From assembly GCF_016903815.1 (NCBI RefSeq), contig NZ_CP069973.1: a DNA stretch of 64,000 bases. One strand, given 5' to 3'. Of this stretch, positions 60,211 to 63,874 are shown piece by piece (the stretch's first letter is position 1; every line of letters begins with the position of its first letter). Source of the DNA: Escherichia coli (lineage in GTDB: Bacteria; Pseudomonadota; Gammaproteobacteria; Enterobacterales; Enterobacteriaceae). The position numbers were made by a program, and so were the translations under genes. The notes under the pieces were generated by a model. It had not been told where the DNA came from. It ran no database searches and was given only the letters and a program-made list of their open reading frames with translations.

Positions 60211-60604
60211 AGTGAGCAGTACGGGGTCGGACCGGTATGCAGCGAACTGCATATTGCCCCGTCAACGTATTACCATTGTCAGCAACAGCGACATCATCCG
60301 GATAAACGCAGTGCCCGTGTGCAGCACGATGACTGGCTGAAGAGAGAGATACAGCGCGTATACGATGAAAATCATCAGGTGTACGGTGTGCGTAAAGTCT
60401 GGCGTCAGTTGTTACGGGAAGGAATCAGGGTGGCCAGATGTACAGTGGCGCGCCTCATGGCGGTTATGGGACTTGCCGGTGTTCTCCGGGGTAAAAAGGT
60501 CCGTACGACCATCAGCCGGAAAGCCGTTGCCGCAGGCGACCGCGTAAACCGTCAGTTCGTGGCAGAACGTCCTGACCAGTTGTGGGTGGCTGATTTTACT
60601 TACG

Positions 60605-62874
60605 GTGTGCCCGGAGTTCAGGGCGGGCATGGATGCTTAAATGAACCGCGAGTCTGTCTGGAATATTGAACCGGTAACTCACGATGAGAAACCCAACAAT
60701 CCCACCGGGTGTGACGGTGGAGAACCTGAGCGGCAGTGACCTGCGGCATGCCCGCAGGGTGATGTAACCCGCTGACAACGGGGATTGAGGCGAGATCACT
60801 AAGCCGAGATGATCCTCAAGGTTAAGTACTGAAAGGCTGAAGAACATGAACCCGTTAATCCGCCTCTGTGGGTTGAAAACGTCACCACGGCCTACGTGAT
60901 CTGACAGGCCGTGCAGGAGGAACTGGCAGTGATACGTAAGCACTACCGGTCGAAGGTGTTTTGACATGTATGCGAAACACCGGGGCAGCAGCGTCTATCA
61001 CGCTTGCGTTGCTGACTTCTGCCAACTTGCGGCAAGCAAGGATAAAGAGTGCGACGGGCAGCCTCCTCAGTATGCCTGAGTCCAGGCAGGTAAACCGGGG
61101 AAGGTCAGCGACGGATGTTAAGGGGGCATGGCTCCGATGACGCGCTGGCTGGCGGAGCTTCCGTAGTAGTCCGCGATGGGGAAAGCCCATTACATGGCGA
61201 AGGGAAGCAGTTTGAATGTGTTTGCGACGTGAATTAACTGACCTAACGAGGTGAAGACCTTTGATAATCAGCGAAATGCAACGCAAGCTTGCCACATGGG
61301 CAGCCACCGATCCGTCCCTACGGATTCAACGGCTGCTGCGTCTGATAACACAACCAGAATGGCTGGCTGAAGCGGCGCGGATCACGCTTTCATCAAAGGG
61401 GGCCCATACCCCCGGCGTTGATGGCGTGAACAAAACAATGCTACAGGCCAGACTGGCTGTTGAGCTGCAAATCCTCAGGGATGAATTACTCTCAGGCCAC
61501 TACCAGCCCTTGCCCGCCAGACGGGTTTACATCCCTAAAAGCAACGGCAAACTGCGACCACTGGGTATCCCCGCGTTGCGGGATCGTATTGTTCAGCGGG
61601 CCATGCTGATGGCGATGGAGCCGATATGGGAGAGTGATTTTCATACGCTCTCATATGGCTTCCGGCCTGAGCGCAGTGTCCACCACGCGATCCGCACGGT
61701 GAAATTACAGCTCACAGACTGTGGTGAAACCCGGGGACGCTGGGTGATTGAAGGCGACCTGTCCAGTTACTTCGACACCGTACATCATCGACTGCTGATG
61801 AAGGCTGTACGCCGCAGGATCAGTGACGCACGTTTCATGACTCTGCTGTGGAAAACCATCAAGGCGGGACATATCGATGTCGGTCTCTTTCGGGCGGCCA
61901 GTGAAGGTGTGCCACAGGGCGGTGTTATATCGCCGCTATTATCGAACATCATGCTGAATGAGTTCGATCAATACCTGCATGAGCGCTACCTGAGCGGGAA
62001 AGCCAGAAAAGATCGGTGGTACTGGAATAACAGTATCCAACGGGGCCGAAGTACGGCGGTCAGAGAAAACTGGCAGTGGAAACCCGCGGTGGCGTACTGC
62101 CGCTATGCCGATGATTTTGTCCTCATCGTCAAAGGCACCAAAGCACAGGCGGAAGCCATCAGGGAGGAGTGTCGGGGTGTGCTCGAAGGCAGTCTGAAAC
62201 TCAGGCTGAACATGGATAAGACTAAAATCACCCATGTTAATGACGGCTTTATCTTTCTGGGGCACAGGATCATTCGCAAACGCAGTCGTTATGGCGAGAT
62301 GCGAGTGGTCTCAACGATCCCGCAGGAGAAAGCCAGAAACTTCGCCGCATCGCTGACAGCACTGTTATCAGGCAACTACAGTGAAAGCAAAGTCGATATG
62401 GCTGAACAACTCAACCGAAAACTGAAAGGCTGGGCCATGTTCTATCAGTTCGTTGATTTTAAGGCCAAAGTCTTCAGTTATATCGACCGTGTCGTGTTCT
62501 GGAAGCTGGCTCACTGGCTGGCCCGCAAATACCGTACAGGTATCGCTTCCCTGATGAGGTGGTGGTGTAAATCACCGAAACCGGGTCAGAGCAAAACGTG
62601 GGTTTTATTTGGTAAAACCAATCACGGCAAGCTCAGCGGCGAAATACTGTACCGGTTGGTGGGGCAAGGCAAGAAGCTGTTCCGCTGGCGGCTACCCGAA
62701 GGTAATCCCTATCTGAGGACGGAGACCAGAAACACGTATACATCGCGCTTTACAGAAGTGGCAATGGCGTTCGCCAGCATTTAAATGGAGAGCCGGATGC
62801 GCTGAAAGGTGCACGTCCGGTTCGGGGAGGAGAGGCAGGGAAATAGTCCGACTACGCCCTGCCTCTTACTCTAC
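60605..62874 (+). mobile_element. Group II intron (2270 bp) with intact RT/maturase ORF, inserted in the IS629-like orfB
   Basis: Begins GTGTG directly after the orfB codons for FTY; ends ...CTCTAC before TCAGCAC; flanking exons rejoin in frame. Confidence 0.8.
61261..62784 (+). CDS. Group II intron reverse transcriptase/maturase (507 aa)
   Basis: RT motifs LGIPALRDRIVQRA, FRPERSVHHA, YADDFVLIV; maturase-like C-terminus. Confidence 0.9.
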   Translation: MIISEMQRKLATWAATDPSLRIQRLLRLITQPEWLAEAARITLSSKGAHTPGVDGVNKTMLQARLAVELQILRDELLSGHYQPLPARRVYIPKSNGKLRPLGIPALRDRIVQRAMLMAMEPIWESDFHTLSYGFRPERSVHHAIRTVKLQLTDCGETRGRWVIEGDLSSYFDTVHHRLLMKAVRRRISDARFMTLLWKTIKAGHIDVGLFRAASEGVPQGGVISPLLSNIMLNEFDQYLHERYLSGKARKDRWYWNNSIQRGRSTAVRENWQWKPAVAYCRYADDFVLIVKGTKAQAEAIREECRGVLEGSLKLRLNMDKTKITHVNDGFIFLGHRIIRKRSRYGEMRVVSTIPQEKARNFAASLTALLSGNYSESKVDMAEQLNRKLKGWAMFYQFVDFKAKVFSYIDRVVFWKLAHWLARKYRTGIASLMRWWCKSPKPGQSKTWVLFGKTNHGKLSGEILYRLVGQGKKLFRWRLPEGNPYLRTETRNTYTSRFTEVAMAFASI

Positions 62875-63389
62875 TCAGCACATGGCGGGGCTTCGTCTAT
62901 GTGGCGTTCATCATTGATGTGTTTGCCGGATACATCGTGGGGTGGCGGGTCTCATCGTCCATGGAAACGACATTCGTGCTGGATGCACTGGAGCAGGCGT
63001 TATGGGCCCGTCGACCGTCCGGCACGGTCCATCACAGTGATAAAGGTTCTCAGTATGTATCGCTGGCCTACACACAGCGGCTTAAGGAAGCCGGATTACT
63101 GGCATCAACAGGAAGTACAGGCGACTCGTATGACAACGCGATGGCGGAGAGCATCAATGGTCTTTACAAAGCGGAGGTAATACACCGTAAGAGCTGGAAA
63201 AACCGTGCAGAAGTGGAACTGGCCACACTCACGTGGGTGGACTGGTATAACAATCGACGATTGCTGGAAAGGCTGGGCCATACTCCTCCGGCAGAAGCAG
63301 AAAAAGCTTATTATGCTTCCATCGGAAACGATGATCTGGCAGCCTGAGTTCACAGATAAAACACTCTCCAGGAAACCCGGGGCGGTTCA

Positions 63390-63532
63390 TTCCTAAAAAG
63401 ACATGTCTTGCCCAATATACTCAACATGAACTAGATCTGGTTGCTGCTCAGCTAAACAACAGACCGAGAAAGACACTGAAATTCAAAACACCGAAAGAGA
63501 TAATTGAAAGGGGTGTTGCATTGACAGATTGA
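63390..63532 (+). pseudogene. IS30-family transposase, C-terminal fragment
   Basis: Translation ...[29 protein letters not shown] matches the IS30-family C-terminal motif. Confidence 0.6.
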
Positions 63533-63538
63533 ATCTAC

Positions 63539-63874
63539 AGTAGCCTTTTTTAATATTTCATTCTCCATTTCAATGCGTTGTAGCTTTTTCCTCAGCTTAC
63601 GTATTTCGATTTGTTCTGGTGTTATCGGAGAGGCTTTTGGTGTTTTGCCCTGATGCTCATCACGCAGTTGTTTGACCCATCTTGTCATTGTGGAAAGGCC
63701 AACATCCATAGCTTTGGCGGCATCTGCCACCGTGTATTTCTGGTCAACAACCAGTTGAGCGGATTCGCGTTTAAACTCTGCGCTAAAATTTCTTTTTTTC
63801 ATTGGAGCACCTGTGTTGTTCTGAGGTGAGCATATCACCTCTGTTCAGGTGGCCAAATTCAGTGTGCCACTTCA
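63539..63874 (-). mobile_element. IS911 fragment (left inverted repeat and 5' part of orfA)
   Basis: [49 protein letters not shown] matches IS911 OrfA, diverging after ILKKAT; terminal ...AGTGTGCCACTTCA. Confidence 0.8.

Follow-up and report, generated by a model that had tools for sequence, protein, structure and literature searches.

The right-hand end of the window, the whole 64,000-nucleotide stretch of Escherichia coli DNA analysed here (contig NZ_CP069973.1), is almost certainly a layered record of successive mobile-element events around a sequence-intact copy of the known group II intron E.c.I4 (IntA), a class A intron lacking an endonuclease domain. The intron lies within orfB of an IS629/IS1203-type insertion sequence (IS), which is followed by the 3' end of an IS30 and the left end of an IS911, and which is truncated on its left by a deletion reaching into the Shango gene sngC. 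All elements described in the initial annotation of this region, including an intron with a GTGTG start at 60605..62874, were recovered at or within 1 nt of the coordinates given there; the recognition of the intron as E.c.I4 at its canonical site and of the left boundary as a microhomology deletion into a Shango gene go beyond it.

Architecture of the locus

The features are listed below with their window coordinates and strand.

59428..60219, minus strand: remnant of the Shango helicase gene sngC, 3' part, C-terminal 263 aa (PADLOC, RefSeq)
60212..60219, no strand: deletion junction, 8-bp microhomology GTGAGCAG common to sngC and IS629-like nt 403-410
60212..60604, plus strand: 5' exon, IS629/IS1203-type nt 403-795, N-terminal part of orfB ending ...LWVADFTY + G (alignment to the L003 element)
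60605..62874, plus strand: group II intron E.c.I4 (IntA; bacterial class A), full length, 2270 nt (Rfam RF00029 and identity to other copies)
60935..60940, plus strand: candidate EBS1, CGUAAG, intron nt 331-336 (complementarity scan)
61261..62784, plus strand: RT/maturase in domain IV, 507 aa from TTG 61261 or 502 aa from ATG 61276 (WP_001189111.1)
62790-62823, plus strand: domain V, with AGC triad and GAAA tetraloop (Rfam alignment and fold)
62826-62872, plus strand: domain VI, with bulged branch-point A at 62868 (Rfam alignment and fold)
62875..63389, plus strand: 3' exon, IS629/IS1203-type nt 796-1310, remaining orfB (stop 63345-63347) and right inverted repeat ...CCCGGGGCGGTTCA
63390..63539, plus strand: IS30 3' end, nt 1072-1221, last ~47 transposase codons and right inverted repeat
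63540..63874, minus strand: IS911 left end, nt 1-335, IRL TGAAGTGGCACACTGAATTTGGCCA and the first ~88 codons of orfA, interrupted by IS30
63875..64000, minus strand: truncated alcohol-dehydrogenase-like gene, 5' part, adjoining the IS911 left end and running off the window

The intron and its encoded protein

The intron begins with GTGTG (60605-60609) and ends with ...CTCTAC (TAC at 62872-62874), in agreement with the consensus GUGYG...AY, and both boundaries are corroborated by alignment to an uninterrupted IS with an empty site. Absence of domains V and VI had been named beforehand as a possible refutation of the intron; the Rfam model of these domains, RF00029, matches 62788-62874 (64.9 bits, E = 2.4e-11; gathering score 40) and stops exactly at the intron end, 62874. 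The two domains fold at -48.2 kcal/mol (z = -5.5), with A 62868, the 7th nucleotide counting from the intron 3' end, unpaired in both the MFE and the centroid structures; a branch-point A is expected 7-8 nt from the 3' splice site. The 5' exon closes with CUUACG (60599-60604); as IBS1, these 6 nt would be matched to the candidate EBS1 by Watson-Crick pairs at every position. We infer this assignment from complementarity. In the local MFE fold the EBS1 segment is left unpaired, and that fold is no better than those of shuffled sequences (z = +1.23). A scan for EBS2/IBS2 returned several equally weak 7-nt candidates with G-U pairs, none of them compelling. The Rfam models of domains I-IV gave no match to this intron, even at E <= 1, and the 5' two-thirds of the ribozyme is accordingly assigned by identity to other copies. 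The same models do match a second, unrelated intron.

Comparisons with other copies identify the window intron as the long-known E.c.I4, in the position where this intron usually homes. Copies located elsewhere are 100% identical to it, it is 99.5% identical to a copy on a plasmid of E24377A, a strain listed with 7 E.c.I4 copies (PMC3522654), and the 1764-nt fragment of the same intron at the K-12 ykfC locus, catalogued as 'E.c.I4-tr1, class A, CP4-6, fragment of 1764 bp' (PMC3522654 supplement), matches intron nt 1-1764 at 99.7%. Identity with E.c.I4 was assessed through these catalogued copies (K-12 ykfC, E24377A). In its length of ~2270 nt, its endonuclease-less RT/maturase and its 99.7-100% identity to catalogued copies, the window intron resembles E.c.I4 (IntA)/S.f.I1 of E. 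coli and Shigella, which has been described as class A without an En domain (PMC3552965). No intrinsic difference separates them, only the window context: a host IS 5'-truncated by a microhomology deletion, and a fixed chromosomal position in a subset of strains (88 genomes). This chromosomal copy is absent from the loci of the 2012 catalogue; the catalogued copy E.c.I4-26 (UTI89/UMN026) was considered as its counterpart and rejected because it is plasmid-borne.

The open reading frame in domain IV contains the Pfam domains RVT_1 (1.5e-34) and GIIM (1.3e-10), which upholds the earlier reading of an intact RT/maturase, and no HNH domain was found in it with Pfam. The TTG start at 61261 is preceded by a GAGGTG Shine-Dalgarno sequence 7 nt upstream and gives a protein of 507 aa; RefSeq starts at ATG 61276 and reports 502 aa, and both versions occur in public annotation. 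The exact 502-aa sequence is present on at least 1000 contigs, WP_001189111.1 being unchanged in intron copies at other sites. The closest solved structure is that of LtrA (5g2x, E = 2.2e-52).

The host element and the homing site

The intron is inserted precisely between nt 795 and 796 of its host IS, the exons being collinear with an uninterrupted 1310-bp relative at locus L003, which is intact, with a 3-bp duplication. The initial annotation had placed the intron directly after the codons for FTY; the position stands, except that the 5' exon extends one nucleotide further, to G 60604, the first base of a Val codon split by the intron. Joined at ...TTTACTTACG/TCAGCACATGG, the exons encode, as had been proposed, a single continuous OrfB of 289 aa with HTH_21 and rve domains. 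Taken separately, the 5' exon contains HTH_21 (6.4e-19), and the 3' exon, with 99.6% identity to the intact L003 element, matches rve, rve_3 and rve_2. The suggested 5' truncation was likewise borne out by the alignment to L003: only nt 403-1310 of the 1310-bp element remain, and the deleted nt 1-402 comprise the IRL with the promoter, orfA and the frameshift site. The 5' exon is hence devoid of the IRL, orfA and the slippery site; of the frameshift pseudoknot it keeps the 3' hairpin, and the Rfam ALIL model gives a partial match (45.3 bits, under the gathering score of 50).

IS names were taken from RefSeq-labelled copies; a member of IS629/IS1203 is expected to be a 1310-bp element with termini TGAACCGCCCCGGG, orfA/orfB with a frameshift pseudoknot, and at least ~95% nucleotide identity. 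The host IS is 96.8% identical to RefSeq 'IS1203' over 908 nt, and its first 146 nt are 95.2% identical to 'IS1203' and 93.9% to 'IS629', the isoform name IS629/IS1203 being approximate. The earlier assignments of the fragments to IS629/IS1203, IS30 and IS911 all agree with the RefSeq-labelled copies.

The same codon context surrounds the intron insertion in five different host ISs, and in the IS629-like, IS911-type and ISCfr6 elements, as well as in another IS3 element, insertion occurs right after D-x-T-Y codons. These codons encode the first Asp of the DDE triad. The homing position in the window is the one known for E.c.I4, in the DDE-coding region of IS3-family transposases (IS629, IS911), and homing of E.c.I4 into IS629, IS911, ISEc16 and ISEc31 has been reported (PMC3522654). 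A separate observation concerns locus L008, where a candidate E.c.I4 target lies in IS26 (IS6 family), at a convergent D-E-T-Y coding motif (...ATGGATGAAACCTACG/TGAAGG). A search of the literature on group II introns with IS26 did not turn up E.c.I4 in that element; the paper that looked closest concerned a different intron, located in an FII-33 plasmid backbone.

The IS30 and IS911 layers

The succession of IS629-like right end, IS30 tail and IS911 left end, in that order, had been recognised previously and was verified by alignment, translation and identity. The IS30 tail (nt 1072-1221 only) directly adjoins the right end of the IS629-like element, is 97.5% identical to the K-12 IS30, ends in ...ATTGAATCTACA and translates to the C-terminus of the IS30 transposase, which RefSeq records as 'IS30 family transposase, missing N-terminus'. 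The IS911 fragment (nt 1-335 only) is 98.8-99.1% identical to copies labelled IS911 in RefSeq, contains HTH_Tnp_1 (Pfam, 5e-14) and meets IS30 at ...AAAAAAGGCTAC. Beyond it, RefSeq annotates 63875-64000 of the identical locus as 'alcohol dehydrogenase catalytic domain-containing protein, missing C-terminus', and every fragment of the locus is already labelled in the RefSeq annotation.

The further claim that the IS629-like element sits inside the IS30 fragment could be followed in the window on one side: the right-hand IS30 flank is seen, and, since the left IS629-like/IS30 junction is deleted, insertion into IS30 is deduced from related loci. The plasmid locus L004 keeps the full nesting: a 3-bp duplication (ACA) marks the entry of the IS629-like element into IS30, and a 2-bp duplication (AC) that of IS30 into IS911. 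Derivation of the window from an L004-type plasmid module was considered and rejected because the IS629-like/IS30 junctions of the two differ by 11 bp. At locus L012, an intron-less IS629-like element occupies the identical IRR/IS30-nt-1072/IS911 junction, which suggests that the IS nest is older than the intron.

Deletion into the Shango operon

The window can be aligned with an intact sngC (L011) as far as 60219, and from 60212 onward it is a perfect match to the intact IS (L003), the overlap being the shared GTGAGCAG; judged from these alignments, the left edge is an 8-bp microhomology deletion and not an IS end. An IS boundary at 60195, where plasmid BLAST matches start, was rejected: in a base-by-base alignment the similarity is patchy over 60195-60211 and becomes perfect at 60212, and the boundary of the initial annotation therefore stands. 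The sngC remnant matches PADLOC SngC at profile positions 468-719 of 720 (E = 1.9e-71) and is labelled 'ATP-dependent helicase, missing N-terminus' in RefSeq. Other strains still have an intact sngA-sngB-sngC operon, among them ECONIH6, to which the window is 99.8% identical up to 60219; the N-terminal ~469 aa of sngC, together with sngB and sngA, have been deleted from the locus. Shango requires three genes (sngA with TerB-N, the ATPase sngB and the helicase sngC), of which the window has a SngC fragment only, and the system is destroyed here. Among 5426 complete E. coli genomes, 88 (~1.6%) carry exactly this deletion junction; one strain with the locus is 7/2 (NZ_CP023820.1). This junction-specific count replaces a figure of 927 genomes, which was discarded because 80% coverage can be attained with the IS and intron alone.

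Order of events and alternative histories

In the order of events that we propose, IS911 would have entered the alcohol-dehydrogenase-like gene, IS30 would then have inserted into IS911 between nt 335 and 336, and the IS629/IS1203-type element into IS30 near its 3' end, at nt ~1072. E.c.I4 would have retrohomed into orfB of this last element at its canonical target, just past the D-x-T-Y codons, after which an illegitimate deletion across the 8-bp microhomology would have joined IS nt 403 to the middle of sngC, with loss of the left-hand portion of each of the three ISs and of the greater part of the Shango (sngABC) operon. If transcribed, the window intron would follow the route established for group II introns: its RNA, bound by the RT/maturase, would be helped to splice via the branch A of domain VI, and the lariat RNP would invade DNA sites pairing with EBS1/EBS2 by reverse splicing. 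As the E.c.I4 protein is without an endonuclease, nascent DNA at replication forks would presumably serve as primer for cDNA synthesis. The order of events given here could be blurred by gene conversion between IS copies.

Two other histories deserve consideration. The intron might have arrived after the sngC/IS deletion, by retrohoming into an already dead and truncated IS: for homing, a few dozen nucleotides around IS nt 795/796 suffice, all of which are kept, and the empty IS629-like element at the same IS30 junction in L012 implies that intron-less ancestors of this IS copy were circulating. We regard this as quite improbable, as the best full-length single-piece matches all begin at the IS and none in sngC, and the sngC junction with an empty intron site was not found among the 5426 complete E. 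coli genomes, an absence which is not proof. Alternatively, homologous recombination or inversions between scattered IS30, IS629-like and IS911 copies might have assembled a mosaic that only resembles nested insertions. The IS629-like element of L012 has IS911 rather than IS30 on its left and no target duplication, IS30 in K-12 lies in the opposite orientation at the same IS911-type position, and three IS629-like/IS30 junctions differ by 3-14 bp, all of which would fit such a mosaic. However, both flanks in L004 carry clean duplications (ACA, AC), as true nested transposition predicts, and the right-hand junctions of the window are exact IS termini, making a mosaic origin unlikely in our view. 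Nested insertion, with the intron following the IS nest and the deletion coming last, is the history that we favor.

Potential for splicing and mobility

Splicing of the window copy would restore an orfB frame that is useless, since the IS has neither left end nor orfA nor frameshift site. Competence for splicing as such is plausible given that the ribozyme hallmarks, the 6-bp EBS1-IBS1 pairing and the protein are all intact in the sequence. Transcription is uncertain because the promoter, orfA and frameshift site of the IS are deleted. A promoter/terminator scan of 58000-64000 returned 9 promoter hits against 6.4 ± 2.3 in shuffled sequence, which is no excess, and with hit counts like those of shuffles the scan is uninformative on expression. 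A terminator-like hairpin at 59387-59412, between convergent upstream genes, may stop read-through.

The intron copy might accordingly be regarded as an inert relic, intact only through its youth, barely transcribed, and neither splicing nor donating. We consider this a serious possibility, slightly less probable than its opposite. It would fit the loss of IS nt 1-402 with the IRL, promoter, orfA and frameshift site, the convergent gene remnant and hairpin upstream, and the promoter-like matches at shuffled expectation. In addition, many genomes are reported to have single E.c.I4 copies beside unoccupied homing sites (PMC3522654), and in L012 a full-length E.c.I4 lies ~180 bp from an empty, perfect IS629-like site. 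Against an inert copy, the RNA and the protein are identical to those of copies at many independent sites and so show no defect in sequence, and weak read-through or spurious transcription, which is common in bacteria, would be enough for some splicing. A far-reaching alternative, which we put forward as a doubtful conjecture, is that the stranded copy is an active retrohoming donor, expressed by read-through across the dead Shango locus, and that E.c.I4 reaches beyond the IS3 family to IS26 (IS6 family) via the D-E-T-Y motif seen in L008. If true, the chromosomal copy would be a stable reservoir re-seeding ISs on incoming plasmids.

Relation to known systems and implications

The same cast of elements occurs at the K-12 ykfC locus in prophage CP4-6 (IS911-type, IS30, E.c.I4-tr1 and IS5), where IS30 occupies the identical IS911-type position, nt 335/336 (...GGCTAC-IS30-ACCGCG), and E.c.I4 also lies in an IS3-family orfB. 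The two loci differ in that the K-12 intron is in the orfB of the IS911-type element itself and is 3'-truncated by IS5, its IS30 is complete and in the opposite orientation, and an IS629-like layer is lacking; moreover, the IS911-type element, called ISEc52-like in some RefSeq records, reaches only ~90% identity. RmInt1 of Sinorhizobium meliloti, a class D intron without an En domain, homes into the transposase gene of ISRm2011-2 and spreads by riding ISs. By analogy, the window intron may be likened to it as an En-less bacterial group II intron with a natural homing site in an IS transposase gene, the two differing in class (D versus A), host IS family and sequence; RmInt1 is cited in PMC3522654. 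With Ll.LtrB/LtrA of Lactococcus lactis, the source of the closest solved structure, the window protein shares the RT and maturase architecture, whereas LtrA is of class ML with a C-terminal DNA-binding/endonuclease region and the window protein is of class A without HNH.

On the whole, the locus is a genuine but unexceptional accumulation of mobile DNA of an already known kind, and E.c.I4 in IS629 is the classic case of an E. coli group II intron inside insertion sequences. The details added here are the deletion junction with sngC, its spread, and the precedence of the IS nest over the intron. The locus illustrates how layered IS and intron insertions can be ordered through strain comparison, and how IS-rich regions can erase their neighbours via microhomology deletion, in this instance a Shango anti-phage operon. 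The 8-bp deletion junction is a possible clonal marker for ~1.6% of complete E. coli genomes, and the locus presents an intron that is able to outlive its host element.

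The intron and its protein

The principal features of the locus are as follows:

60605..62874: group II intron of 2270 nt, beginning GTGTG and ending CTCTAC
63390-63539: IS30 nt 1072-1221, translating to the transposase C-terminus; the right inverted repeat ends at 63539
63540-63874, minus strand: IS911 nt 1-335, with IRL TGAAGTGGCACACTGAATTTGGCCA and about 88 codons of orfA

The initial annotation had proposed an intron with these boundaries, a GTGTG start and an internal RT/maturase ORF, and all three are borne out. The ORF (61261..62784) matches the Pfam families RVT_1 (1.5e-34) and GIIM, the maturase domain (1.3e-10), without a Pfam match to an HNH endonuclease domain, and its nearest solved structure is LtrA (5g2x, E = 2.2e-52). 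The exact 502-aa protein, WP_001189111.1, is found on at least 1000 contigs. Conserved domains V and VI are also present: the Rfam model RF00029 scores 64.9 bits over 62788-62874 (gathering score 40), the match ending at the last intron base. Folded alone, 62786-62874 reaches -48.2 kcal/mol versus -29.0 ± 3.5 for shuffles (z = -5.5), with domain V as a 34-nt hairpin with a GAAA loop and a single bulged A (62868) in the domain VI helix, 7 bases from the 3' splice site.

A query with the intron only found matches in 2668 of the 5426 complete E. coli genomes, with identities that were mostly 99% or higher and up to 20 places per genome. In K-12 strains the match covers intron nt 1-1764 (99.7% identity) and carries the gene name ykfC, and a catalogue entry, 'E.c.I4-tr1', records a 1764-bp class A fragment in prophage CP4-6 of MG1655 (Leclercq and Cordaux, PMC3522654). 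E.c.I4 targets specific positions in the transposase genes of IS629, IS911, ISEc16 and ISEc31 (PMC3522654), and both it and S.f.I1 are class A introns whose proteins have no endonuclease domain (Toro and Martinez-Abarca, PMC3552965), a placing that fits the HNH-less protein of the window. These agreements, taken together, identify the intron by its sequence as the long-known E.c.I4, inserted where this element canonically homes.

Target sites of E.c.I4

The target was compared across five host ISs, namely the IS629-like element, an IS911-type element, ISCfr6, a further IS3 member and, against expectation, IS26. In each host the intron sits after the first base of the codon following a D-x-T-Y segment, the stretch that specifies the leading Asp of the DDE triad. 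The 5' exon of the window copy ends in CTTACG, six bases that pair perfectly with CGTAAG at intron nt 331-336, making the latter a plausible EBS1; for EBS2 there were several candidates, all similarly weak.

The IS26 case (NZ_CP061749.1; region 1250-4231 of the extracted locus) is a full-length, 99.9% identical E.c.I4 at 1501-3770 that splits the transposase gene of this IS6-family element at the analogous D-E-T-Y coding position (...ATGGATGAAACCTACG/TGAAGG). This host is outside the IS3-family range reported in 2012, and the papers searched gave no report of E.c.I4 in IS26. The junction is rare: it occurs in one of the 5426 E. coli genomes and, identically, in one Klebsiella pneumoniae plasmid, while three Klebsiella plasmids match it at 88% identity. 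In strain BKQ37E (NZ_CP170328.1, 667-4426 of the locus), IS911 orfB carries a full-length E.c.I4, and about 180 bp separate this copy from an intact IS629-like element whose perfect homing site is unoccupied. PMC3522654 discusses such unsaturated homing sites, and this is a concrete case.

The host element and its IS30 and IS911 neighbors

Joined in silico, 60208-60604 and 62875-63347 form a single open reading frame with HTH_21 in one half and the rve integrase core in the other (Pfam), so that the proposed continuous IS629-like OrfB stands. As the empty-site reference we used an uninterrupted 1310-bp IS copy flanked by a 3-bp CAA duplication. The window exons are collinear with it, the intron separating IS nt 795 precisely from nt 796 and nothing being lost or duplicated, and relative to it IS nt 1-402 are gone, in agreement with the suggested 5' truncation. 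The window copy is thus without its left end, orfA and frameshift site, and of the ALIL pseudoknot only the 3' hairpin survives (Rfam, 45.3 bits, below the gathering score). The remaining 393 nt of 5' and 515 nt of 3' exon are far more than splicing needs. Judged via RefSeq-named copies, the name 'IS629-like' is fair because the intron-less IS shares 96.8% identity with 'IS1203' copies, O157:H7 ones among them, and its first 146 nt share 93.9% with one 'IS629' copy; unnamed IS3-family copies reach 99.7%.

The IS629-like right end (...CCCGGGGCGGTTCA) lies at 63389, and the order IS629-like right end, IS30 tail, IS911 left end holds, with junctions at 63389/63390 and 63539/63540. The IS30 fragment is 97.5% identical to K-12 IS30; the IS911 fragment is 98.8-99.1% identical to RefSeq-named IS911 copies, and its orfA portion matches HTH_Tnp_1 (Pfam, 5e-14). 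At the identical locus of strain 7/2, RefSeq labels a partial helicase, a partial IS3 transposase, ltrA, a partial IS3 transposase, a partial IS30 transposase, a partial transposase and a partial alcohol dehydrogenase.

Junctions shared with or related to those of the window are:

IS30/IS911-type: window 63539/63540; K-12 CP4-6 locus 3350/3351; Shigella plasmid locus 2531/2532 and 7335/7336
IS629-like/IS30: window 63389/63390 (IS30 nt 1072); a further locus, L010, 6696/6697 (1069); Shigella plasmid locus 7196/7197 (1083)

The IS30 insertion point (...AAAAAAGGCTAC/IS30/ACCGCGC, 2-bp AC duplication) is identical in the IS911 of the window, the Shigella plasmid and BKQ37E, and recurs in the IS911-type element of K-12 CP4-6. 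The exact same position in IS911 and in this diverged relative, with IS30 in opposite orientations, suggests an insertion hot spot in the IS911-type group. The three different IS629-like/IS30 junctions, all in the same orientation and within a 15-bp stretch of the IS30 3' end, suggest that IS629-type elements have entered this small part of IS30 more than once. E.c.I4 is present in the IS at all three of these loci.

A deletion junction in Shango

L011 10129-15953: sngA-sngB-sngC, the anti-phage Shango operon of strain ECONIH6

Other strains, ECONIH6 among them, have the three-gene operon intact at this spot (PADLOC for ECONIH6: SngA 6.7e-100, SngB 8.7e-187, SngC 3.5e-278). The window follows the ECONIH6 locus at 99.8% identity as far as 60219, and IS identity starts at 60212; since the sngC and IS matches overlap in the 8 bp GTGAGCAG, the left edge is a microhomology-mediated deletion junction. 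The deletion removed IS629-like nt 1-402, IS30 nt 1-1071 and the remaining IS911, and with them sngA, sngB and about two-thirds of sngC. By this comparison, Shango was destroyed in the window lineage by the deletion that also cut the IS. The exact junction occurs in 88 of the 5426 genomes.

On the upstream side of the IS fragment, what is labeled a partial 'helicase' (59428-60219, minus) is the SngC C-terminus. A 274-aa chimeric ORF (59428-60252, minus) is listed there, with its ATG and first 11 codons antisense in the IS fragment followed by the SngC remnant; RefSeq treats it as a pseudogene.

Order of events

The Shigella plasmid keeps a full nest: IS911 is split by IS30 (2-bp AC duplication), IS30 by an intact IS629-like element (3-bp ACA duplication) and the latter by E.c.I4, with a second E.c.I4 in IS911 orfB. 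Descent of the window from this version is ruled out by an 11-bp difference in the position of the IS629-like/IS30 junction (IS30 nt 1072 in the window, 1083 in the plasmid). BKQ37E has the window-type junction (GGTTCA/TTCCTAAAAAG, then IS911 nt 335→1) with an intact IS629-like element that has no intron, which argues that the IS nest is older than the intron. No genome searched has the sngC/IS junction with an empty intron site, and the intron therefore most likely arrived before the deletion.

Other elements of the window

A second group II intron, unrelated to E.c.I4 (31963-33769, minus, 1807 nt, starting GTGCG), begins directly after the terminator hairpin downstream of grpO in a GRP-type propanediol microcompartment locus, a position suggesting class C. 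It matches the Rfam models D1D4-3 (141 bits), D1D4-1 (74 bits) and D5/D6 (50 bits), and its RT ORF is split into two parts of 179 and 175 aa; length and disrupted ORF fit the description of E.c.I6 (PMC3522654). Positions 1-50000 form a genomic island adjoining cadBC, with remnants of CP4-type prophage (cbtA/yeeU toxin-antitoxin, antirestriction), a cluster for pseudouridine utilization, the whole glycyl-radical propanediol microcompartment locus from grpA to grpS, fragments of T6SS genes, one IS2, and a pair resembling ibrAB (PAPS reductase and IbrB-like) with a PerC-family regulator.

Functional potential and significance

The ribozyme hallmarks, putative EBS1/IBS1 and protein of the window copy are all intact, and the protein is identical in copies at other sites. 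The upstream neighbor of the intron-bearing fragment is a convergent gene remnant, and a promoter scan gave hits no better than chance. The prospects for measurable splicing in vivo appear roughly even. Splicing would in any event restore only an orfB that is not translatable as the OrfAB transposase.

On sequence grounds the locus belongs to a known kind and is no mere lookalike: it is E.c.I4 within an element of the IS629 group. The K-12 CP4-6 ykfC locus likewise has E.c.I4 beside IS30 and an IS911-type element, with the same IS30 insertion point, but differs in the opposite IS30 orientation and in the IS911-type element, a diverged relative with approximately 90% identity. E.c.I4 at its canonical site is already known; only the microhomology junction, the loss of Shango and the order of events are additions here, and these would not surprise a specialist.
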